DNA from: a virus
Taxonomy: Duplodnaviria > Caudoviricetes
IMG/VR virus record: IMGVR_UViG_3300028886_000004
Span: 32,001-96,000 of that record
DNA: 64,000 bases
Reading direction: 5' to 3' (one strand)
The position numbers were made by a program, and so were the translations under genes. Position 1 is the stretch's first letter. Each line of letters begins with the position of its first letter. The notes under the pieces are model-generated. The model did not search any database. It saw nothing but the letters and a program-made list of their open reading frames with translations, and was not told the origin of the DNA. Below, one piece after another: positions 2,852-57,144 of this stretch.

Positions 2852-3088
2852 ATGGGCATCAAACTTATAAAGAAAAAAACCGAGGCAAGCACTTCCGTAG
2901 GCGAGTTTCAGGCAATTCTTGATTCGCTGGCGGGGCTGTATGCCAATGACGTTCAATTCAAGTATGACGGCGACCAAAAGGTGGTGGCGGTAACTAAAGG
3001 GGACAAGACCATTGGAACTGTCCGTGCCGAAGGTGCCCTTCACACAATCATTTGGGCGACGCTGAGCCTTGCGGAGAAAGAAGCGTGA
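2852..3088 (+). CDS. Small protein with N-terminal MGIKLIKKKTE tag (putative internal head protein)
   Basis: N-terminus shared with the ORFs at 4529, 5803 and 6158; TATATTTG box upstream at 2821. Confidence 0.7.
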   Translation: MGIKLIKKKTEASTSVGEFQAILDSLAGLYANDVQFKYDGDQKVVAVTKGDKTIGTVRAEGALHTIIWATLSLAEKEA

Positions 3089-3939
3089 TAGCGATTATGA
3101 CAAATCAAGGCGCCCTTGAAGTCGGCCGCTCCCTTTCCGGGGGCAGTCGTTTTCTTGCTTGGGAAGCCGCTCTCCTCAAAGAGAACTTCGATGGCGAATC
3201 CGTCGATCAGGTGGCAAATATCACCTCCGACGATATAAGCCTCGGCGCCGGATTGATTCACGGCAAACAAATTGTCCATACATTTGAATGCACCGGTTCC
3301 CTGCCGGTTCAGGTCTCCTCCGAGGATGGCGGGACCGAAGTGAAGGCGATGGCGGTTGATTTCGATTTCAACGGCCAAGTCCCTATCGAAGAGGGATCCA
3401 GCTCCAGCAGCGGCAGCGGCGCCGGGAACACCTCCCTGGAATACTCCGCCGTTGTGGCTCTTGCCCGCCGCTACTCCAAATATCAAACGGTTGCCCCGGG
3501 GAGGACCTATAACGTAGGCGACCACGTTTGGCTTCCCTATGAAGCCGACCCCCAGCGCACGAAGGCGTATGTCTGCCTTACGGACGGATTCGTATACGCC
3601 GGCGTCCTGCCTAGCGAGGACACGGAGCATTGGATGGAAACATCCACTGAAACGTTGATTAACTATCCCGGCGAGCCCGACTTCTATTGCGACCCGAACA
3701 GCGACATCATTCCCTTCTTCGTTACCTCCTACGACGACCCCGTCACGATGGCAAATGGTATGGAATGGGAATACAAGGTCCGCGTCTTCTTGGACAATGT
3801 GGTTACGACCAAATTGTCCGAGCTCAAGTATTTCTCAAAAGGCGGGCTGGAAGTTAACGGCAGCCTGATGCTCACATTCCTTGCGAACACCGCCGAGATG
3901 TTCCGTGCCATCCGAGAAAAAGTTTCAACCGCTTCCTAG
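3085..3939 (+). CDS. Tail collar/fibre-like protein
   Basis: GTG start overlapping the previous stop (alternative ATG at 3097); IMTNQG N-terminus resembles tail-collar proteins; CBM-like motif TYNVGDHVW...AYVCL. Confidence 0.45.
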   Translation: MIAIMTNQGALEVGRSLSGGSRFLAWEAALLKENFDGESVDQVANITSDDISLGAGLIHGKQIVHTFECTGSLPVQVSSEDGGTEVKAMAVDFDFNGQVPIEEGSSSSSGSGAGNTSLEYSAVVALARRYSKYQTVAPGRTYNVGDHVWLPYEADPQRTKAYVCLTDGFVYAGVLPSEDTEHWMETSTETLINYPGEPDFYCDPNSDIIPFFVTSYDDPVTMANGMEWEYKVRVFLDNVVTTKLSELKYFSKGGLEVNGSLMLTFLANTAEMFRAIREKVSTAS

Positions 3940-3951
3940 CGAGGTTCTTTT

Positions 3952-4515
3952 ATGCCGAAAATCAAAATGCTTGAAAAGCTGTCCCCCTATAAGGTAACCT
4001 ACTTGGCGGACAGACCGGGCGAGATTGGCGCCAAGCTCTATGCGAAAAAAGTTTTTGCCGGCAACGACCGGGATGCCGTTATCACTTTCAACAACTGGTT
4101 TGATACCTGCAAGTCCTTCCCCGAAGGTTCCTCTTGCGACATTCAAAAGGTCGAATTGATTCAAGGCGAAAGCGCCAACAAGTCCTACACATTTACTTGG
4201 TGGGACAACGAGCCCACCGCCGACCGCCGCCCCACCACGAGGGCGGATTTGAAAAATTGCCTGCACAAGGAAATTTTCCTTGCCGTCGATGATGCGGAAG
4301 CGCTGAAGCTGGCGATGGAATATCTTTGCGATTACACCGGCGATGACCCCGAGGATGTTGCCGACACGCCGGAAAAGATTTGGGACCACTTCAACAGCGA
4401 TTGGGGCTCCGGCGATCCTATTCCGATGGTCCTCAAGCAGCGCAGCCGCGTTGTCAAGGATTCCGGCTTCAATCCAAATCGCGAAGACGACGAATCCAAG
4501 CACACCAAAAAGTAA
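3952..4515 (+). CDS. Hypothetical protein (MPKIKMLE start, possibly a tag variant)
   Basis: ORF with GAGG RBS, inside the tagged-gene cluster. Confidence 0.6.
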   Translation: MPKIKMLEKLSPYKVTYLADRPGEIGAKLYAKKVFAGNDRDAVITFNNWFDTCKSFPEGSSCDIQKVELIQGESANKSYTFTWWDNEPTADRRPTTRADLKNCLHKEIFLAVDDAEALKLAMEYLCDYTGDDPEDVADTPEKIWDHFNSDWGSGDPIPMVLKQRSRVVKDSGFNPNREDDESKHTKK

Positions 4516-4528
4516 AGGACAGCATATT

Positions 4529-5794
4529 ATGGGAATCAAACTTATCAAGAAAACAAACGAGTCCTTTGAATCGGACTTGGAAAACATTGCGCAGACCAGC
4601 GGCGAAATCGAATACGATGACGCCTGGAAATTGAATCGCTCCGCCGCCAAGGATCCGGAACTCCGTAAAAAGGTCCGCAACCTGATTGGCGATTGGCGCA
4701 GCGCCGCCGAGGACGAGGACAACGATGAAATGACAAAGGCCGCCAAGGCGCTCAAGGCATTGGCGGATTCCCTGCCTAAGCAGGAGGCGCGTATGCACCT
4801 CGGCCGCTGCGTAAACTGCCACGGCGGATGGACCAAGACCAATTACGTCGATGAACTGGAACCGGACGTTCGCAAATACTTCAAGGGAATAGGCTTCGCG
4901 GATAACGACGACGTTTGCCCCAAGTGTGTTGCGGCGGTGAAAAAGCATCTCGCGCAGGGCAAGGCCGAAGGCGCCACCTATGACGAATATGTGGACGCGG
5001 TTGCAGCCAGCCTTGAAGATGACTTTGAATACAGCCCGATTACGGCGCTTGAATTTGCCCGCGATGATTTCAAGGACATCACAAAGGCCTTCTACAGCGC
5101 TACCAAGACCCCGAAAGAAGCCGCAAAGGAAATTGACGCCAAGTATATGGGCGAAGGCCGCAAAAAGGCCGAAGGTCACGAAGGCTGGGACGATTGGGAA
5201 GAAGTCGAAGGGCTGGAAGAATCCATTGAAGGAATTGAAAACCTCGCCTACGAATTGCGCCACTGCATTCGCGGCGCCAAGACCCATTGCAAGGATTGGA
5301 AGTCCCTCGCCCTTTACATCAAGGGACTTGCATCCAACCTTGACGATGCCGCCGAATTGATGGCATACAAAACGGACAGCGATGACGATGATGAATCCGC
5401 AAATGAATCGGACAATCCCGTAGGCGAACTCTTTGATGCCTTGAAGCAGGCGCTTGCCGGAAAGGGCTACAAGGTTTCGCAGTTCACCTCGGACAAGGAA
5501 TTTGTCGGACAGAAGAAGGCTTTCGACGGCATAAGCATCGAAAGTGAGGACCCCGACGCGTACCACAAAAATCCGTACCGCATTGTCCTTGATACGGATG
5601 ACAACCTCTTCCGCATCTTCTTCCCCGGGGTTCGCCGCAAATCCGTAACCGGACAGCCCGGCAGCATTTCGGGCATTGTCAAATTCATCTTGCGCGACCT
5701 CAATTTGGATGAATCCAAGAAGAAGAAAAACCCGAGCAAGGATTTTTCGTCCACTGTTGAAGAGGACGAAGATGGCAGAAAGAAATCTCACTAG
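4529..5794 (+). CDS. Putative internal head polyprotein (MGIKLIKKTNE tag; CxxC..CxxC module)
   Basis: True start is the ATG at 4529 after AAGGA; shared tag; acidic; recurring K/A-x-E sites. Confidence 0.75.
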   Translation: MGIKLIKKTNESFESDLENIAQTSGEIEYDDAWKLNRSAAKDPELRKKVRNLIGDWRSAAEDEDNDEMTKAAKALKALADSLPKQEARMHLGRCVNCHGGWTKTNYVDELEPDVRKYFKGIGFADNDDVCPKCVAAVKKHLAQGKAEGATYDEYVDAVAASLEDDFEYSPITALEFARDDFKDITKAFYSATKTPKEAAKEIDAKYMGEGRKKAEGHEGWDDWEEVEGLEESIEGIENLAYELRHCIRGAKTHCKDWKSLALYIKGLASNLDDAAELMAYKTDSDDDDESANESDNPVGELFDALKQALAGKGYKVSQFTSDKEFVGQKKAFDGISIESEDPDAYHKNPYRIVLDTDDNLFRIFFPGVRRKSVTGQPGSISGIVKFILRDLNLDESKKKKNPSKDFSSTVEEDEDGRKKSH

Positions 5795-5802
5795 GAGTTT
5801 TT

Positions 5803-6141
5803 ATGCACATCAAACTTATTAAGAAAACAAGTGAAGCCGCCCGAGACCTGGAAGCAATTCGTGCCAAGTTTTGCGACAATCCGGATCTCGCCAAAATAGG
5901 GTGCCTCACCGAGCCTTATGAAGGCAACGCCATTTTTGGAACACAGACTTGGAGCGATGGCGTCCCGATTACAAAACACTGGCATCGGGATAACAAAAGC
6001 CAATGGGTGTCCCTTAAAAAGGGAACGCGCTGCATCGCATTGCTTGATCAGGACGGCGGGGAAGTTGAGGCCGTTTGGATTCCATACCGCAACGGATGGC
6101 TCCGTGTGGATGGCAGCGACATCGAAGTAAATTTTAACTAA
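5803..6141 (+). CDS. Putative internal head protein (MHIKLIKKTSE tag)
   Basis: Shared tag; AGGAG RBS. Confidence 0.75.
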   Translation: MHIKLIKKTSEAARDLEAIRAKFCDNPDLAKIGCLTEPYEGNAIFGTQTWSDGVPITKHWHRDNKSQWVSLKKGTRCIALLDQDGGEVEAVWIPYRNGWLRVDGSDIEVNFN

Positions 6142-6157
6142 AACACCGAGGACTATT

Positions 6158-7693
6158 ATGGGAATCAAACTTATCAAGAAAACAAACGAGGCTGCCTACA
6201 CGGCGGTCAAGAATCCGAAGCAGGCCGCTTTCATCATTGATTGCGGTTCCCCGGAAAAGGCAAAGGAATTGAACGATGCCTTCTCGGTCTTAGCCGAAAA
6301 GGTGTTGGACCGCGATGACAAGGAAGCGGGAGACGCAATCGGGCGAAACGTTATTATGTTTTATGATGTCGGCCCCTTCTTCACCGCCTGCGTCGATCCT
6401 TGTGACAAGGCAGCCGCGTGGTGTGAAGAATGGCTCCGCAATTCCGGCGGCGCAGCACCTGCTATTCAGGGCAATTCCGCCGGGCTGGAAAGCAAGGCAA
6501 ACGAGGATGACGTAGGCGCCCGCCTCCGTGACATTCTCAACGGCAATGACGTTTGGTCCGAAGTGAGCGGCGGCGATAACGATTCGCTCGTGGACAACAT
6601 CCTTGACGGCGATTGGATTGGCTTGATGTGCGGACCGAACAGTGACGACGCTGCCGATTGGGATGCCTACATCAAGGACACCTTCGGTTCCTTCAAGCAG
6701 TATGTTGAAGCCGAATGGTTCTCCCCGGATGAAAATGACCCGAACTTCAAAACTGTCCACATCAAGTTCAAGCCGCGTTTCGCCCTTGGCGATAAGGAAA
6801 CGCAGACCAGCGTTCTCAGCCAGCTCGGCGACAAGATCGCGGATGGCTACTTCGCTATGGCGGAAAAGCGCCACGAGGCGCTGTCCCCGAAAATGCAGAA
6901 GCGTCTTAAATTGAAGGCGTGGCAGGACAACTCTGTGAAAATGAAAGGCTTCGATGAAGCCGGTTACTCGTTCCTCGATTTGTATGAGGACGGCAAGTGC
7001 GACACAATCGCCGTCCCTACCAAGGGCTATCAAACCGAAAAGGAAGCGCTCGACGCCGCAAAGAAAATCTTTGACGACTTTGACGAATACTTCGAAGTGA
7101 CCGCCCACTTCGATGAAGAAGGCGGACCGGATGGCGAAGCCGTGTGGTTCCCTGCCTACGGATTGAAGAAGACCTTTGTGGACCTCCCGGAAGGCGAAGG
7201 GCTGGAAGTTCTCTCGGAACTCTCCGATGTCCTCTATCGCCTGTATACAAAGGGCGAGTCCGCAAGCGAAGACCGCCGTGGCACGGACCGCTACGGACAC
7301 CACGTCAAGCGCTTCACTACAAAGGACCTGAAGGGCTTGGATGGCGATGGCGACGCGGCTGGCGACAATGGTGGCAACGGCGCCGATGCGGGAACGGGAG
7401 CGGATGACAAGTTTGGTCTTGCCTATATGGACACGACTTCGATTTCCGCGTTCTCCAACAACTTCAGCACCAGCGAGCGCGACAACTTCCTGCACGACCT
7501 CGCCCAAATGCCGGTGTCCAAGAAATCGATTGAGGACCTGCTCCGCAAGCACAAGCTCCACAAATACGGGCGTGAGGTTGGAGTCCGCGACTTCTTCCCG
7601 GACAACGGAATCGCCTACCTCGGAACATATGGCGATGACGGCCTCCCGTATAAGTCGCTGTACCTCAAGTGGGGTCCGGCGCTGAAGAAATAA
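6158..7693 (+). CDS. Putative internal head polyprotein (MGIKLIKKTNE tag)
   Basis: Shared tag; GAGGA RBS; acidic and modular. Confidence 0.75.
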   Translation: MGIKLIKKTNEAAYTAVKNPKQAAFIIDCGSPEKAKELNDAFSVLAEKVLDRDDKEAGDAIGRNVIMFYDVGPFFTACVDPCDKAAAWCEEWLRNSGGAAPAIQGNSAGLESKANEDDVGARLRDILNGNDVWSEVSGGDNDSLVDNILDGDWIGLMCGPNSDDAADWDAYIKDTFGSFKQYVEAEWFSPDENDPNFKTVHIKFKPRFALGDKETQTSVLSQLGDKIADGYFAMAEKRHEALSPKMQKRLKLKAWQDNSVKMKGFDEAGYSFLDLYEDGKCDTIAVPTKGYQTEKEALDAAKKIFDDFDEYFEVTAHFDEEGGPDGEAVWFPAYGLKKTFVDLPEGEGLEVLSELSDVLYRLYTKGESASEDRRGTDRYGHHVKRFTTKDLKGLDGDGDAAGDNGGNGADAGTGADDKFGLAYMDTTSISAFSNNFSTSERDNFLHDLAQMPVSKKSIEDLLRKHKLHKYGREVGVRDFFPDNGIAYLGTYGDDGLPYKSLYLKWGPALKK

Positions 7694-50227: not shown

Positions 50228-51748
50228 GTGTTTATCAAGAAGAAATACGAGGCATCCAGCCCTTTCAAAATCACGGATGTGAAGTGCGACCAAAAGTGGC
50301 TCGCCGAGGCGGGGAATGACGGCTTGGTTGTTTCCTGCCTGATCAACGGCGTTCCTTGCAAGTTCCCGTTTAAGGGGGCACGCTGGAGCAAGGTGATGGT
50401 GGGCGGCCTTGGCATTGATTGCGAAGATGCCCTCTTCCCTCGCAGCGGATCCTTTTGGCCGGAACATGTTAAAATCGCAACGGAAGGCGGCGGGAATTAT
50501 TACTACCCGCTTTGCATCAATGATGATGTTGTGAAGTCCCAGCCGAAGGAAAATCAAAAGGATTTCCGTTTTACCGGACAGCTGTATTCCACGGCGCCGA
50601 TCGCCAAGGCTTTCAAGACCAAGCTGCTTGAATTGTACAACAAAGGCTATCTCACCCAAAAATTCCTTGAACACGTAGGCGCCGCCGAAGCGACCACGGA
50701 AGCCCGCAAGGATAAGGTGGACTGGAATGATCTCGCCTATTGGGTTTCGAAGGCAAACGAACCCGAATATGGTGATATGCGTATCACCTTGAAGGAAATT
50801 GCCGACCACGCGCATACCACCGTCGATGATGTCAAGGCGCACGCCTATGATATGCTGAAGACAATGCGCGGGATTGATTGTATTGACGATGTCTACTGGC
50901 GTGGCGATACGGACTCTCCCATTACTTTCACCAAGAAGAAAATGTGGTATGAGGATCGCGTCGCCAACGAGGCAACCCTTATGATTCGCGGCGGCAAGGC
51001 AACCGGCCTTCTTGAAGTGGTCGGCCGCATTGCGCAGGCAAAGAATCAGGCGCGTGCTCAGGACTTGCAGGGAATCTTCTCCCACTATATGGCATTGTCC
51101 AATGTTCTTTTGAACACCGATGGCATTACGCGCGAGCAGGTCCCCGGAAAGCCCTATTATGTTTACAGCGTGAATGACTTTCTCCATTCCTACTACAAGG
51201 ATGCCTGCCGTGAATTGGGCCGTGGCTACTACGAACTCGATGGCAAGTATGTACCGGGGAAGAAGGATAGCACGCCGCAAAAGCCGCAAACCCCTCCGGC
51301 TCCAGCCAAGAAGCCCGAAGGCACGGTGCTGCCTTTTGAACAATGCTTCTTTGCCTCTATGATTCTTGACGCCAAGGATTACAGCGGCGGACGCGAATGT
51401 TCTTGGATTGACCCCAAGAATCTCAGTCGCGTGTTGGCTGCCTACGAGGACGATGATGGCACCCCGCTTTCCCGCAAGATGGGCGATCTCAAACAAAAGT
51501 ATGAACGCCTCAAGGAAAAGTGCCTTGCGGATGGAAAGTCCAAGGTTGCCCGCGTCGGCGAGGACTACGGAACCGTTGATTCGGATTGCATCCCGGATAT
51601 CAAGGATTACCTTGAAATGTGGCCGAAGCATAGCCGCGACGGGCGCGTGCAGGAGGCGACCTCCCTTTGGATGTGCGTTGCGCCTTCCAGGGACAAGGTC
51701 AAATTCGATAGCAACGAATGGAATAGCCGCCCGGTCATTGACGTGTAA
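50228..51748 (+). CDS. Putative internal head polyprotein (MFIKKKYE tag)
   Basis: Shared tag; internal xxE-A sites separate modules. Confidence 0.7.
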   Translation: MFIKKKYEASSPFKITDVKCDQKWLAEAGNDGLVVSCLINGVPCKFPFKGARWSKVMVGGLGIDCEDALFPRSGSFWPEHVKIATEGGGNYYYPLCINDDVVKSQPKENQKDFRFTGQLYSTAPIAKAFKTKLLELYNKGYLTQKFLEHVGAAEATTEARKDKVDWNDLAYWVSKANEPEYGDMRITLKEIADHAHTTVDDVKAHAYDMLKTMRGIDCIDDVYWRGDTDSPITFTKKKMWYEDRVANEATLMIRGGKATGLLEVVGRIAQAKNQARAQDLQGIFSHYMALSNVLLNTDGITREQVPGKPYYVYSVNDFLHSYYKDACRELGRGYYELDGKYVPGKKDSTPQKPQTPPAPAKKPEGTVLPFEQCFFASMILDAKDYSGGRECSWIDPKNLSRVLAAYEDDDGTPLSRKMGDLKQKYERLKEKCLADGKSKVARVGEDYGTVDSDCIPDIKDYLEMWPKHSRDGRVQEATSLWMCVAPSRDKVKFDSNEWNSRPVIDV

Positions 51749-51891: not shown

Positions 51892-52704
51892 ATGCAACAG
51901 TATCTCAATCTACTCAAGGACATCATTGAAAATGGCGTGGACCGCTCCGATCGCACCGGAACCGGAACCCGCTCCGTATTTGGCCGCCAAATCCGTTTTG
52001 ATCTTTCGGCGGGATTCCCGTGCCTCACTACAAAGAAACTTTCTTTGCGCAGCATTATCTACGAGCTGCTTTGGTTCTTGAAAGGCGAAACCAATATCCG
52101 GTATCTTCACGAACATATGGTTTCGATTTGGGACGAATGGGCTGACGAGAACGGCGAATTGGGCCCGGTATATGGCCGCCAGTGGCGCTCGTGGCCGACA
52201 CCGAATGGAGGGCACATTGACCAAATTTCCAACGTGCTGGATTCCCTCAAAAACAACCCGGATTCAAGGCGCCACGTAGTTAGCGCTTGGAACGTGGCCG
52301 ACGTGGACAATATGGCTCTCCCGCCTTGCCATTGCCTCTTCCAGTTCTATGTGGGCGGCGTAGGCGCCAGCGGAAAGCGCCGTTTGAGCTGCCAGCTTTA
52401 TCAGCGTAGCGCCGATGTGTTTTTGGGAGTCCCGTTTAACATTGCCTCGTACTCCCTGCTGACAATGATGATTGCACAGGTATGCGGCTATGAACCGGGA
52501 GAATTTGTCCACACGTTCGGGGACTTGCATTTGTACAGCAACCACTTTGAGCAGGCGAATCTCCAGCTCTCTCGCGACCCTCGCCCCTTGCCTACTATGA
52601 AATTGAATCCGGAAATCACGGACCTGTTTAAATTTGATTTCACGGACTTCACGCTGCTCAACTACAACCCGCATCCTGCCATCAAGGCGCCTATTGCGGT
52701 GTAA
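51892..52704 (+). CDS. thyA: Thymidylate synthase
   Basis: [38 protein letters not shown] and GDLHLY. Confidence 0.98.
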
Positions 52705-52819: not shown

Positions 52820-53512
52820 TTGGAACGCAAATACACCATCACAGAAGAAACCGTAATCACCAAAAACATCTTCAATAAGGAAGATGAAAAGATGGTGGAG
52901 CACCTTCTCCGCAAGATGCTTGGTATCCCCGAAAACGTGGAACTTGACGATAACCTGAAGGACACGCCGCATCGCTGGTGCAAGCTGTGGACTGAAATGA
53001 CCGAAGGCTATCGCACCAACCCCGCCGATTACCTGAACAAGATGTTCCCGGTAAATAGCGAAAATATGGCGGACGATGCCGAGAAGCGCCACTTTGACGG
53101 CAGCGCCACCAAGCCGATGTACGAACAGGGAATTGTGGTGGTGTCCACCGATGCGTGGTCCAGCTGTTGCCACCATTTGGCTCCGATGCATTGCCGCGTG
53201 GATGTGGCATACATTCCGAAGGACAATGTCGTGGGCCTTTCCAAGATTGTCCGTATGGTGAAAATGTATGGCCGCCGCCTGAATCTTCAGGAGGGCTGGC
53301 AGGCAAACATCGCGGACGCCATTATGGAAAAGCTGGGGGCCTTGGCGGTTGCTGTCCGCATCAGCGGCATTCATTCCTGCGTTTCTATGCGTGGCGCCAG
53401 TGAACAGACCTCGAAAACAACCACAAGTTGCGTGCGTGGAATCTTCACGGAAAATGATGCTGCCCGTGCCGAGGCATTTGCCTTGATGGACAAAAACAAA
53501 AACAAGGACTAG
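52820..53512 (+). CDS. folE: GTP cyclohydrolase I
   Basis: L.DTP.R, S.C.HHL.P, VVGLSKIVR, RR...QE and H.CVSMRG. Confidence 0.95.
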   Translation: MERKYTITEETVITKNIFNKEDEKMVEHLLRKMLGIPENVELDDNLKDTPHRWCKLWTEMTEGYRTNPADYLNKMFPVNSENMADDAEKRHFDGSATKPMYEQGIVVVSTDAWSSCCHHLAPMHCRVDVAYIPKDNVVGLSKIVRMVKMYGRRLNLQEGWQANIADAIMEKLGALAVAVRISGIHSCVSMRGASEQTSKTTTSCVRGIFTENDAARAEAFALMDKNKNKD

Positions 53513-53822: not shown

Positions 53823-54854
53823 ATGTCTCAAAGAATTATAGATGCCGTTCCGTTCGAGCATTACACCCTTATCGAAGACAAGGCACAAATTTCCGAATCC
53901 TTCAAGGACGAAGTGAATAATAGCCGTGGCGCTATCCTTGCAATTGTTAAGGGAAAGCACTTCTGCCCCGATGGCACCTCCCGCAACCACCGCTTCTATC
54001 CCAAGGCACTTTGGCTTGGAGTGAAGAACGATGAAAACTTTATGGCACGCCTCAAGCGTAATGGGGTTGTGGGCCGCGTGGGACACGAACCGGAAATCAC
54101 CGATGAAGATATCGGCGAAGGAAATTACTCCCATTTTACCCGCAATATCAATTGGGAAACCGGTGAAGCGGAGTCCGTCATTGTGGACACCCCGATGGGC
54201 CGCAACCTGCTTACCGCCCTTCGCGCCGGAATCCAGCTTTTTGTAAGTTCCCGCGCAACCGGCGATTATTGCGGAAAGAATGATGAAGGGAACGATATTA
54301 TGGACGCCAAGACCTATGCGCTTGAACGTTTTGATTTCGTTCAGGACCCCGGATTTCTTGAAGCTCATCCGACTCTTGTGTCCGAATCCCTTAACAAGGG
54401 CGGAGCCAAGAGTGCGGTTGCTGAAGCGCTTCTCCGCATTGCGCAGAAGATTGGTGCCTCTGTATTTCTCGACGGCCGCCGTTACGTGGTCGAATCCCTT
54501 GATGCTAAGGGGATTCACATGGCTACGGAGGACACCAATCTTCGCGAAACTTATGAAAGCCACGACTTCGAAGATGTCCTCCCCGATCTTGAAAAAGCTA
54601 TTGTGTCCGCTGCTTCAAAGAATGAAGCGCTCGCCAATGATTTGAAGAGCGCCAACAACGATTTGAAGATTGCCCGCTTTGCCAACGACCAGGGACTGGA
54701 CGAAGAACATGTCCGCAAGCGTTTGCAAGAAGGCGCAACGTTGGAAATGATCGCAAAGGAGCATCCGGCGCCGCAACAGACGTATCGCATTGCCGAACAA
54801 CATGTTCCGTCGAAGCCGAAACACGAGTCCGTCCTCAACCGAATTTTTAGATAA
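53823..54854 (+). CDS. Prohead core protease (T4 gp21-like)
   Basis: RNHRFYP, G.VGHEP, SH, DTPMG, VSSRATG and FDFVQDPG. Confidence 0.9.
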   Translation: MSQRIIDAVPFEHYTLIEDKAQISESFKDEVNNSRGAILAIVKGKHFCPDGTSRNHRFYPKALWLGVKNDENFMARLKRNGVVGRVGHEPEITDEDIGEGNYSHFTRNINWETGEAESVIVDTPMGRNLLTALRAGIQLFVSSRATGDYCGKNDEGNDIMDAKTYALERFDFVQDPGFLEAHPTLVSESLNKGGAKSAVAEALLRIAQKIGASVFLDGRRYVVESLDAKGIHMATEDTNLRETYESHDFEDVLPDLEKAIVSAASKNEALANDLKSANNDLKIARFANDQGLDEEHVRKRLQEGATLEMIAKEHPAPQQTYRIAEQHVPSKPKHESVLNRIFR

Positions 54855-54924: not shown

Positions 54925-55425
54925 ATGAGCATCAAAATTTTGAAGAAGTTTACGGGCAAGAAGAGCGAATCGGCCGCATCCGTAGCCGCACGCCTTCGTG
55001 AACGTAACAAAGCCCGTGCTGAAGCTCTCGCTAAGGCCAAGCAGGCTGCTGCTGCAAAGAAGAACGAAGATGAAGGTGGTGAAGGCGATCAGGTTGATGA
55101 CATCAACATGGACGCTGAAACTGCTGAAGTCCTGTTCTCCACCAAGGACGTCAACTATGATGGTCCGATGCAGGTTCTCGTTGGCGAAGATCCGGTTGAC
55201 GGCGGCATTGTTGTAGCTGTTGCCACCGCAGAAAAGGACAACGTGGAAGAAGAAGAAGTCCTCGCCTCCATCACGGTCGGCGAAGGCGACGCCCCTGCTG
55301 CCGGAAACGGCGAAGCCGGAAACGGTGAAGAAACTGAAGAATCCAAGAAGGCTGCTGCGGACGCTGCAAAGGCTAAGGCCGTTGAAGAAGCTCGCACTGC
55401 CATCAAGGCCCGCCTCAAAAAGTAA
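54925..55425 (+). CDS. Prohead core / scaffolding protein
   Basis: Between protease and capsid; MSIKILKK..KSE N-terminus; acidic and helical. Confidence 0.6.
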   Translation: MSIKILKKFTGKKSESAASVAARLRERNKARAEALAKAKQAAAAKKNEDEGGEGDQVDDINMDAETAEVLFSTKDVNYDGPMQVLVGEDPVDGGIVVAVATAEKDNVEEEEVLASITVGEGDAPAAGNGEAGNGEETEESKKAAADAAKAKAVEEARTAIKARLKK

Positions 55426-55443
55426 TTACAAGGAGATCACATT

Positions 55444-57144
55444 ATGGCCCAGCCCGTAAATGAAAAGAATGTCGACGAAGATTTGCTCGTTGCCAAGCAC
55501 CAGCGCCAGCTCGAATCTTACGATCGCAAGTATGCCGAACAGTTCGAAGCCCTCGCCAAGTCCGAAACCTATAAGGGCGGCCTTGATGACAACGCTCGTT
55601 TTGTCCTCGGCTCCAACCTCGACGCCTACAAGCGTTATGAAGCCGACCTCGTGTCCGGTGGCTCTTCCGCCAGCTCCCTTGGCAAGCTCCCGACCATCGC
55701 AGTTGACCTCATCAGCGCAACCTACGGCCTCACTGTTGCCCCGCAGCTCGCCTCGATGCAGAACATCGAAGAAGACCAGGGCATCGTTTACTTCAAGAAG
55801 GTGTTTACCCACGGTTATCCGTTCACCGCTACGAAGGGTCTTCCGGCTCTTCCGAACGATGGCTGGATGGACGCCGATGGTAACGAACCGGGCTCCTTGC
55901 TGAACGGCAAGTGGAAGACCTGGCACGACCACCGTGGCGCCCCGACCGGTTCCGAAGGTGCTTCTTCCGCAGGCAAGCTCCCGTCCGAAGACATCTCCGC
56001 CAAGAACTTTGACGCCATCACGTTTGACGCTCTCAAGGGCTGGCAGTCCTCTCCGACCGCCTACATGTCCGAACGTCAGGTTGCTAAGGTCTCCAACGGC
56101 CAGTGCACCCTTCCGAACGTGATCGGTAACACCCGCTGGAACGTCCCGATGGATGTCCGCCTTGTCAACGAAGATGGCAAGTATGTGGACCTCAAGGGTA
56201 TGTGCGATGGTCCGGGTATGCTTCCGACCTTCTGGGGCAACGGCGTGACTGTTGAAGTCGAAGCCAGCGGCAACGACCTCATCCTCATCTTTGACGGCAA
56301 GATCGCCGGCAAGGACATCATCGGCGGTGCCGTCGCTTATGATGTGGACTTCGAAAAGGCTCCGGATGTGCCGACGATTGAATTCGCCACCACGTCCACC
56401 TTCGTCAACGCCCACATCTTCGGCGTGAAGGAACTCACTGGTGACTTCAAGTCCTTCCAGTTCAAGAAGCGCTTTGGCCGTGCTGCCGAAGACGAAGTGG
56501 TTATGGACCTCTCCGGCCACCTCGCTCAGGCTGAATCCGAAAAGGTGATTGGCGCCCTCAAGCGTGCTGCAAATGCCAACGGCAAGCCGCTCACTTGGAA
56601 CGTCAACTGCCCGGTCGCCATTGCTGAAGCCCAGCACCGTAAGAGCTTGCTCTTCACGATCAACGCTGGTAGCTCCATCATCGGTACCCGTTGCGGTCGC
56701 GGCCGCATCAACCGCATCGTGGCTGGTTACACGGCTTGCGAATACCTCGCATCCCTCGACGGCTTCCGTCAGGCTCCTGCACAGAACGGCATTGGCCCGC
56801 ACGTGTTCGGTACCCTCGAAAACGAAGGCATCACGATTATCCGTTCCAGCACGGTTGTTGCTACGAACGAAATCATCGGTTGCTACATCAACCCGAACTC
56901 CCCGTGGGAAGCTGCCGTGGTTGACGCAACCTACATGCCGGCGTTCCTCACGGACACCATCAAGGTTGCCCACAACCCGTTCCAAAACATGCGTGCTATC
57001 GCTGCTTGGAAGGCAATCGAAACGGTTGTCCCGCAGTTCGTGGTCCGCATCGTTTTGACCAAGGCTCCGATCGTCACCCCGGATGCAACTGTTGCACTGG
57101 TCAATCCGACCTCCGGTAACAGCTCCGCTGGCTCTCAGGGCTAA
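55444..57144 (+). CDS. Major capsid protein (T4 gp23-like)
   Basis: 566 aa; DLI..Y..VAPQLASMQ..GIVYF, N.IV, VFGTL and DATYMP patterns; strong codon bias; terminator follows. Confidence 0.85.
   Translation: MAQPVNEKNVDEDLLVAKHQRQLESYDRKYAEQFEALAKSETYKGGLDDNARFVLGSNLDAYKRYEADLVSGGSSASSLGKLPTIAVDLISATYGLTVAPQLASMQNIEEDQGIVYFKKVFTHGYPFTATKGLPALPNDGWMDADGNEPGSLLNGKWKTWHDHRGAPTGSEGASSAGKLPSEDISAKNFDAITFDALKGWQSSPTAYMSERQVAKVSNGQCTLPNVIGNTRWNVPMDVRLVNEDGKYVDLKGMCDGPGMLPTFWGNGVTVEVEASGNDLILIFDGKIAGKDIIGGAVAYDVDFEKAPDVPTIEFATTSTFVNAHIFGVKELTGDFKSFQFKKRFGRAAEDEVVMDLSGHLAQAESEKVIGALKRAANANGKPLTWNVNCPVAIAEAQHRKSLLFTINAGSSIIGTRCGRGRINRIVAGYTACEYLASLDGFRQAPAQNGIGPHVFGTLENEGITIIRSSTVVATNEIIGCYINPNSPWEAAVVDATYMPAFLTDTIKVAHNPFQNMRAIAAWKAIETVVPQFVVRIVLTKAPIVTPDATVALVNPTSGNSSAGSQG

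Follow-up and report, generated by a model that had tools for sequence, protein, structure and literature searches.

Here, we characterized a family of phage genes that encode unrelated proteins behind one short N-terminal leader. The genes belong to an uncultured phage represented by a 134,991-bp Caudoviricetes record (IMGVR_UViG_3300028886_000004) that has direct terminal repeats and is complete by CheckV estimate. The stretch analyzed, referred to as the window, comprises bases 32001-96000 of that record (64,000 nucleotides), and four of the genes with the main form of the leader lie at window 2852-7693. The leader ends in Glu followed by a small residue, and two of the genes encode chains of modules whose joints repeat this type of site. 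As an explanation of the whole, we lean toward a capsid-targeting system of the T4 type that has another leader and another preference at P3 and is extended to multi-module chains.

A shared leader on unrelated proteins

A six-frame scan of the whole genome combined with a regular expression for the leader selected 10 open reading frames (ORFs), all on the plus strand (Table 1). Eight begin M-x-I(K/R)(L/M)I(K/H)K...E↓A/S, where the arrow marks the predicted cut, and two begin with the variant MPKIKM(L/I)E (window 3952 and genome 26162). An initial annotation of the window, made from the sequence alone, had noticed four ORFs starting M(G/H)IKLIKKxxE followed by Ala or Ser, at 2852, 4529, 5803, and 6158. 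All four are present as described, but the number of tagged genes was underestimated, with more at genome 21517, 21853, 25392, and 101394 in addition to the two variant starts. Every leader of the M-x-IKLIKK type has Glu at residue 10-16 followed by Ala, Ser, or Gly, and a Shine-Dalgarno-like purine run is visible 5′ of several leader ORFs. The longest frame of the 421-amino acid (aa) ORF begins at 4343; all of its homologues begin at the leader Met, which is preceded by a Shine-Dalgarno-like AAAGGA. Among the 1564 ORF candidates in the genome that start with Met and reach 50 aa or more, only three N-terminal pentamers recur (GIKLI five times, PKIKM and SYACT twice each), and the recurrence of GIKLI indicates that sharing of the leader is not due to chance. 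When the first 12 residues were removed and all tagged ORFs were compared, no pair of cargo bodies was similar at E ≤ 0.05, in keeping with their earlier description as otherwise unrelated. Family searches gave no names for the genes that neighbor the leader loci, so these loci cannot be placed among structural genes. The start MSYACT is common to two ORF candidates (genome 15967 and window 63080), one of which is an internal Met of a longer ORF, and may be a chance occurrence.

Table 1. Leader-bearing genes, leader DNA repeats, and head genes, with positions in the window or in the whole genome.
Feature	Length	Position	Strand	Remarks
Leader-bearing cargo gene	78 aa	window 2852..3088	+	start MGIKLIKKKTE↓AS
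Cargo gene with variant leader MPKIKMLE	187 aa	window 3952..4515	+	two modules joined at IQGE↓S; tail DDE↓SKHTKK
Leader DNA repeat, copy 1	37 nt	window 4525..4561	+	37/37 nt identical to 6154-6190, including 4 nt before ATG
Cargo chain P0002	421 aa	window 4529..5794	+	start MGIKLIKKTNE↓SF
Cargo gene P0003	112 aa	window 5803..6141	+	start MHIKLIKKTSE↓AA
Leader DNA repeat, copy 2	37 nt	window 6154..6190	+	37/37 nt identical to 4525-4561
Cargo chain P0004	511 aa	window 6158..7693	+	start MGIKLIKKTNE↓AA
Prohead protease, T4 gp21 family	343 aa	window 53823..54854	+	phrog_207
Scaffold-like protein	166 aa	window 54925..55425	+	leader-like start MSIKILKKFTGKKSE↓S (MSIKILKK..KSE↓S)
Major capsid protein, weakly gp23-like		window 55444..57144	+	Pfam Gp23 E 2.5e-4; phrog_138 E 1e-5
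Leader ORF	110 aa	genome 21517	+	leader scan
Leader ORF	140 aa	genome 21853	+	leader scan
Leader ORF	107 aa	genome 25392	+	leader scan
MPKIKM(L/I)E-type ORF	211 aa	genome 26162-26797 (= L001 12162-12797)	+	unrelated to the 187-aa protein
Leader ORF	158 aa	genome 101394	+	start MAIRMIHKNE↓A

The leader has drifted in relatives. A complete relative, G001 (131.7 kb; 74% nucleotide identity over 48% of the genome), carries MAKIKLxKKNE↓A/G (four times), MSRIKLIKNE↓A, MPHIRLLSKNE↓A, and MSIRLVHKKAE↓A. The last of these begins the G001 orthologue of the 78-aa protein, which in L004 begins MGIKLVKRKTE↓A, and both retain the Glu site. From the leaders of G001 and the present phage, a core motif can be derived that consists of I-(K/R)-hydrophobic-hydrophobic near the N-terminus, then basic residues and x-x-E followed by a small residue. 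The MPKIKM type represents a variant form of this signal.

It is conceivable that the leader has nothing to do with the capsid and serves as a translation-start context, as a tag for another enzyme, or as a recombination handle only. Its codon choice is unusually uniform (CTT in 18/23 and ATC in 19/23), and its DNA is A-rich, as in efficient starts. However, the pattern of hydrophobic and basic residues and the Glu persist in orthologues whose amino acids have changed (IKLIKK to IRLVHK), the scaffold-like protein carries the leader, and analogues in Yersinia phage YerA41, discussed below, occur in virions. We therefore regard a leader unconnected with the capsid as very improbable. A reading of the leader as the tag of a radical S-adenosylmethionine (radical-SAM) enzyme was dropped, because the single radical-SAM gene (genome 111385) adjoins no leader gene; the distance is about 10 kb to the nearest one (genome 101394) and exceeds 70 kb for the clusters at 21-39 kb.

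Two chains of small modules

By BLAST mapping, P0002 comprises the leader (residues 1-11), modules at 12-86, 87-147, 148-215, 216-289, and 294-395, and a tail at 396-421. Module 87-147 is Zn-ribbon-like (CxxC..CxxC), and the tail stays C-terminal even in homologues that are without module 294-395. The layout of P0004 is leader (1-11), modules 12-116, 117-240, and 241-367, a Gly/Asp-rich linker (368-415), and module 416-511. The internal Glu sites that had been listed for the two proteins were all found in the sequence, namely E86, E147, E215, E293, and E395 of P0002 and E116, E240, and E367 of P0004.

The AlphaFold model of P0002 has a mean predicted local distance difference test (pLDDT) score of 68 and a predicted template modeling (pTM) score of 0.27. 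Its pLDDT is below 50 at residues 1-9, 144-148, 208-219, 280-294, and 397-421 and dips at 81-90, which together mark every joint. The model of P0004 (mean pLDDT 79, pTM 0.42) falls below 50 at 1-13, 99-116, 367-376, and 385-415, and a structural aligner splits this protein into separate domains at 10-101, 117-236, and 243-369. No predicted fold crosses a site in either model, and disordered, low-confidence linkers occur at nearly all predicted sites of both chains, which answers the question of domain boundaries raised with the initial annotation.

Two side observations concern the ends of these proteins. The charged C-terminal tail DE↓SKKKKNPSKDFSSTVEEDEDGRKKSH (window 5711-5791, P0002 395-421) ends many chains whatever modules come before, and the 187-aa protein ends in a short version of it (DDE↓SKHTKK, window 4489-4512); the tail could be a second functional signal. 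Module 416-511 of P0004 (window 7403-7690) has leaderless free-standing homologues of 112-134 aa (P0092 and P0097-P0099, start ..FGW..ID..) and is the only module seen also as an untagged stand-alone protein.

Mosaic homologues break at the predicted sites

We obtained 53 homologues of the 421-aa protein by word-seeded search and 40 of the 511-aa protein by exhaustive profile search, approximately 90 metagenomic homologues in all. Their coverage ranges from 17 to 100%, and identity is high inside the covered parts. Chain segments occur in them alone behind a leader, deleted, reordered, or fused across genes. For example, P0057 consists of P0002 module 2 followed by P0004 103-511, and P0028 of a variant leader, P0002 87-295, and P0004 241-511. 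The N-module of the 187-aa protein is followed by P0002 147-421 in P0021 and is joined to P0002 modules in P0026 also; the C-module of the same protein lies directly behind a leader in P0025 and inside P0043. In L004, the P0003 body is leaderless and fused behind residues 1-295 of a P0002 homologue via ...ESKRNE↓DKRDLEAIR. Comparison of module order among relatives, as suggested at the outset, thus revealed homologues that are not collinear over their full length. Full-length collinearity and folds spanning the sites had both been named beforehand as evidence that would speak against a segmented structure; both were looked for, and the opposite was found.

The joint sites had been listed before any homologue came into view. 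In P0002, 38 of 73 distinct breakpoints are no more than 5 residues away from one of the five predicted sites (expectation 13.8%; binomial p = 1e-14), as are 18 of 42 in P0004 with respect to three predicted sites (6.8% expected; p = 6e-11), these p-values being rough since the events are not fully independent and the ends of high-scoring segment pairs are fuzzy. The description of the long proteins as strings of segments therefore holds, with module joints at the predicted sites.

Joints resemble leader ends

Leaders can be swapped in before a given module, and these swaps indicate that the leader Glu and the internal Glu hold the same position relative to the module. Module 87-147, which internally follows ...LPKQE↓ARMHLG, is found directly behind leaders as MGIKLIKKNE↓ARMHLG (P0017), MAKIKLIKNE↓GAKRTHLG (G001), MGIKLIKKTKQE↓ARMH, and MTKIKMIEKATRMHLG (P0028). 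For module 148-215, the internal ...GKAE↓GATYDE corresponds to ...RAQGKAE↓GASYDE behind MARIKMVK (P0022) and to MPCIRTAAKAFHE↓GATYDD in P0043. Leader fusions to P0004 module 241-367 read MSLKIKMIHKKQE↓GLSPK, MKITVKEMKCGE↓ALSPKM, MSIKTYKNNE↓ALSPK, and MSKTKIKLVTNE↓AALSDK vs. the internal ...KRHE↓ALSPKM, and the leader ends that directly precede LSPK are KQE↓G, CGE↓A, NNE↓A, and TNE↓A. In relatives, the MPKIKM type also swaps with the MGIKLIKK type before the same modules. In L016, MPKIKMVE↓ATALNRITM is fused straight to the C-terminal module, which is preceded here by ...ERKSE↓AVLNRITM.

Glu is conserved at most joints. Among distinct joint contexts, P1 is Glu in 14/17 at site 86, 26/31 at site 215, 23/25 at site 289, 16/19 at site 240, and 13/16 at the start of the first P0004 module. 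P2 and P3 vary, and P1′ is Ala, Ser, or Gly. Cargo contains the motif [KTA][NASHQTG]E[ASG] 9 times vs. 1.8 expected from the composition of each protein, and the remaining proteins contain it 40 times vs. 41.5 expected; the motif was derived from cargo sites, so its enrichment there is partly circular. Independent carriers are the C-terminal extension of the protease (SKNE268↓A and PKHE335↓S) and a 506-aa protein of no known family (window 50228-51748), in which four such motifs occur vs. 0.4 expected from composition. On the basis of these motifs, the 506-aa protein may be another substrate of the protease, perhaps a portal or other head protein.

The joints might also be plain flexible linkers, in which case the leader would be lost in the head and the chains packaged and delivered whole, like polyvalent proteins. 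Multidomain virion-delivered proteins are common (PMC5512222), mosaicism at linkers requires no protease, E367 of P0004 is not conserved, and E240 has a helical context. Set against this, Glu and a small residue are kept at most joints while their neighbors vary, the joint Glu takes the position of the leader Glu when a leader replaces the upstream module, and the site motif is five-fold over composition in cargo only. We consider delivery of whole chains unlikely.

Recombination and turnover

The two leader copies reported to be identical over 37 nt are so (Table 1). The two orthologous leaders in L004/L007 differ from each other, suggesting gene conversion (homogenization) within the present genome. 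A 9-nt direct repeat, GATGAATCC (D-E-S), lies on either side of module 294-395, relatives without this module read ...DE↓SKKK, and the two KAE↓G sites have 11 nt in common. Joint repeats and relatives that have lost a module support the idea that the DNA repeat serves as a recombination point, and extend it from leader DNA to the site-coding DNA at joints. A search with the leader DNA pattern yielded about 25 tagged ORFs on a dozen IMG/VR contigs, with new cargos among them. Only four cargo units are common to G001 and the present phage; the scaffold and its leader are conserved. No similarity was found between the DNA of this region and known phages.

A 260-aa protein that starts MSERIIKTGL (L001 6715-7497, genome 20715-21497) is encoded just upstream of the leader ORF at genome 21517. 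Approximately 10 of its metagenomic homologues (P0036 and P0035 among them) continue in the same frame into an internal leader, ..CKMGIKFIKKNE↓S.., and then into P0002-type modules, which indicates that the leader can be internal. Its start, MSERII, resembles the protease's own start, MSQRII.

Protease, scaffold, and capsid genes

A gp21-like protease had been proposed at 53823, and the assignment is borne out by a family in common with T4 gp21 and by aligned His and Ser residues. The protein matches phrog_207 with E = 6e-17, and T4 gp21 matches the same part of this profile with E = 8e-76. BLAST aligned the two proteins directly (26% identity over 155 aa), with GH and VSSR in register, so that His88 and Ser142 (VSSR) correspond to gp21 His85 and Ser140 (VSSR), which we take to be the catalytic residues of gp21. 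It also matches the protease of YerA41 (26.6% identity, E = 2e-10). Pfam Peptidase_S77 (MEROPS S77) gave no match to the protein even at E ≤ 10, and a comparison with PDB sequences gave none.

The scaffold-like gene sits between the protease and major capsid genes, as gp22 does in T4. Its product is Ala/Lys/Glu-rich and acidic (isoelectric point, pI, 4.8), and at 54925 it does begin similarly to the tagged ORFs, as noted initially. The G001 orthologue starts MSIKIIKQFSGKKNE↓A, and T4 gp22 has a leader ending ...IAE↓A. The major capsid gene was also identified by tblastn matches to annotated major capsid proteins, and reading of its sequence points to candidate maturation sites at QFE35↓A, KSE41↓T, and RYE66↓A.

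These similarities raise the possibility that the tagged proteins are accessory core or scaffold proteins like T4 gp67, gp68, and gp22, which would be chopped at many Glu sites and expelled before DNA entry, so that nothing is injected. The cargo is acidic, like scaffold and core proteins, and has the leader in common with the scaffold; in T4, moreover, multiply cleaved substrates are core proteins, and virion components lose propeptides only (PMC9026906). However, the modules are predicted folded domains of 60-130 residues, too large for peptide-like exit through capsid pores. Furthermore, the repertoire differs almost fully between phages with 74% nucleotide identity over half the genome, whereas the true scaffold is conserved, and the small YerA41 leader proteins occur in mature particles. 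Expulsion as core protein is, in our view, quite unlikely.

The cultured relative YerA41

The capsid protein and protease of YerA41 are distant homologues of those described here. Beside its head genes, YerA41 (MW570730; L036 39741-44298) has six small genes, 205c, 206c, and 208c-211c. Five of the six products start MS(R/K)IS..N.KFE↓A/S or ...LKKFE↓S and one ...KSKSE↓S. Apart from a weak similarity between 205c and 210c, the only match, the bodies are almost wholly unrelated. The scaffold-like 201c is full of K-x-E↓S/G sites. By length and order, the six genes correspond to genes 003-006, 008, and 009 in Table S2 of the YerA41 paper, where they are late genes and all six products are detected with liquid chromatography-tandem mass spectrometry in purified particles (PMC7354516). 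The parts of that paper that we read make no mention of a shared leader. These data are no evidence of cleavage but show that a leader-sharing family of such kind occurs in virions in this broad clade. YerA41 is like the present phage in having almost wholly unrelated small proteins with a shared leader, which in YerA41 ends K-F-E↓A/S, or KSE↓S in one case; it differs in leader sequence, and its leader proteins are single-module. In Escherichia coli phage IME392, which has a related protease, no shared N-terminal leaders were found in a 50-kb structural region, indicating that the feature is not universal in the protease clade.

Searches for module function

Pfam and PHROGs searches with all cargo proteins gave no match, and Pfam searches with 84 homologues gave only DUF7678 (two members) and MbeD_MobD (one member). 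Foldseek comparison of the chains with PDB and BFVD gave no match at E ≤ 0.001, and ESM Atlas gave no usable match for P0004 modules 241-367 and 416-511. A wide VIA-align search gave only generic alpha/beta matches for P0004 residues 10-101 (Z ≤ 7). With no family or fold match for any module, an anti-defense role of the cargo is without computational support and is speculation.

Discussion

Mullaney and Black (1996) reportedly described the T4 capsid targeting sequence (CTS) on internal proteins and its removal by gp21. In T4, the CTS is carried by IPI, IPII, IPIII, and Alt and is removed by the prohead protease gp21 (PMC9026906, PMC3012670). All characterized proteases of the gp21 type cut after Glu, with the motifs L/I-x-E in T4, S/A/G-x-E in phiKZ, and A-x-E in SPN3US, and several trim their own C-terminus (PMC5694885, PMC9026906). 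The leader described here resembles the T4 CTS as a short, putative N-terminal propeptide (10-19 aa) on unrelated, poorly conserved proteins that ends at a predicted Glu site of the protease. A gp21-family protease, a scaffold with a leader of its own, as in gp22, and a cargo repertoire that varies between related phages are further likenesses. Unlike in T4, the leader sequence is unrelated, P3 is K/T/A rather than L/I, approximately 10 cargo genes lie in three places, and two cargos are chains of 4-6 modules with the same type of site. In addition, the modules are mostly acidic, and the phage is far from Straboviridae, with a capsid protein that matches Gp23 weakly.

Related phenomena have been described elsewhere. 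In SPN3US, the paralogues gp53 and gp54 have an identical 15-residue N-terminus, which its authors likened to the CTS (PMC5694885, PMC10052503). phiKZ, 201phi2-1, and SPN3US (Thomas et al., 2010, 2012) also have a gp21-related protease and several Glu cuts per substrate (PMC5694885, PMC10052503). Unlike in the present phage, their extra sites lie in long propeptides (>100 aa) that are cleared, with the motif A/S/G-x-E, and in the papers that we read on these phages, folded modules are not described as being recombined from gene to gene at such sites (PMC5694885, PMC10052503). Polyvalent proteins, which occur in phages and conjugative elements (Iyer, Burroughs, Anand, de Souza, and Aravind, 2017; PMC5512222), likewise combine many unrelated domains per polypeptide, are predicted to enter the host with DNA, and are shuffled between elements. 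In contrast to the chains analyzed here, they have recognizable enzymatic or conflict domains and an embedded metallopeptidase where processing is proposed. Our modules are small, with almost no Pfam match among 84 members, and the proposed processor is the prohead protease; P0002 and P0004 have no Pfam family, and thus neither the recognizable conflict enzymes nor the embedded peptidase of polyvalent proteins. The CTS and variable internal proteins of T-even phages are already published, as are polyvalent proteins and the head proteins that giant phages cut at multiple sites. Our literature searches returned no account of this leader family or of cargo chains that trade modules from gene to gene at joints of the protease type.

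These comparisons suggest the following model. Unrelated proteins would reach the scaffolding core by means of a prohead-targeting propeptide, namely the M-x-IKLIKK-(2-8 residues)-E leader or its MPKIKM(L/I)E form; the scaffold protein of that core has the same motif at its start. Removal of the leader, by a cut after Glu, would then fall to the prohead protease of the gp21 family. By analogy with T4, targeting together with leader removal is probable. The two long genes would encode beads-on-a-string chains of small, independently folding modules, each joint repeating the site type (Glu as P1 before A/S/G as P1′, with P2 variable and P3 often K/T/A), and the protease would separate at least some modules inside the head. 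We propose this cutting at internal joints tentatively, from the joint sequences, as a possibility somewhat short of probable. The pieces may stay with the DNA and would probably be ejected into the host, and the repertoire would turn over fast via recombination at leader DNA and short site-coding repeats.

The capsid-tag reading first offered for these genes thus retains its leader anatomy (11-16 residues, common to unrelated proteins and the scaffold, and with Glu then a small residue at the end, like a T4-type CTS), its gp21-family protease, its modular strings, and its signs of recombination, and gains a particle analogue in YerA41. E367 did not fit, and several observations weigh against the model. 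Leader and joint sites mostly have K, T, A, or D as their P3 residue and L twice (LSE and LDE), so they do not follow the T4 motif and the specificity of the protease must differ from that of gp21; the specificity we infer from the sites (K/T/A at P3) is neither that of T4 nor that of phiKZ. The strict site motif is also absent from the major capsid protein. The proposed P0004 site KGE↓S at E367 keeps its Glu in only 2/8 contexts, and the neighboring SE↓D at E371 is present in 8/8 instead. E240 lies at a helix break between two predicted helices with no long loop. The conserved joint Glu could be part of each module and not a determinant of cleavage. Since domain boundaries are natural recombination points in any multidomain protein, the mosaic alone is no proof of cleavage. 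In P0036 the leader is internal, so a free N-terminus is not always present. Finally, most modules have a pI of 4.3-5.4, unlike T4 IPII and IPIII, which are basic.

If the model is correct, a simple sequence rule (a shared leader, Glu joints, and a gp21-type protease) would identify the proteins that accompany phage DNA into the cell. Annotation otherwise detects hardly any of this class, to which anti-restriction factors belong in T4. It would also follow that polyprotein processing allows dsDNA phages to supply a set of small proteins at a constant ratio, and dozens of small, fast-shuffling modules of unknown fold would become candidates for early host takeover or counter-defense. It is possible, though we would not count on it, that this lineage, and perhaps many phages with gp21-type proteases, follow a polyprotein cargo strategy in which one tag serves effectors separated at joints that double as recombination sites. 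Gain or loss of an effector, or its transfer to another gene, would then require no new signals for regulation or targeting, and the result would be a combinatorial, fast-evolving injected arsenal of almost entirely unknown folds. Through the link to YerA41, the idea can be tested by existing methods in a phage that is in culture, and one use to try for the leader within this phage group is as a tag for packaging.

Two genes of recognizable function are located directly upstream of the protease region, a thymidylate synthase (window 51892-52704; phrog_160, E = 1e-118) and a GTP cyclohydrolase (window 52820-53512; phrog_2197, E = 1e-50). Together with the radical-SAM gene, they suggest that the DNA of this phage may be modified.

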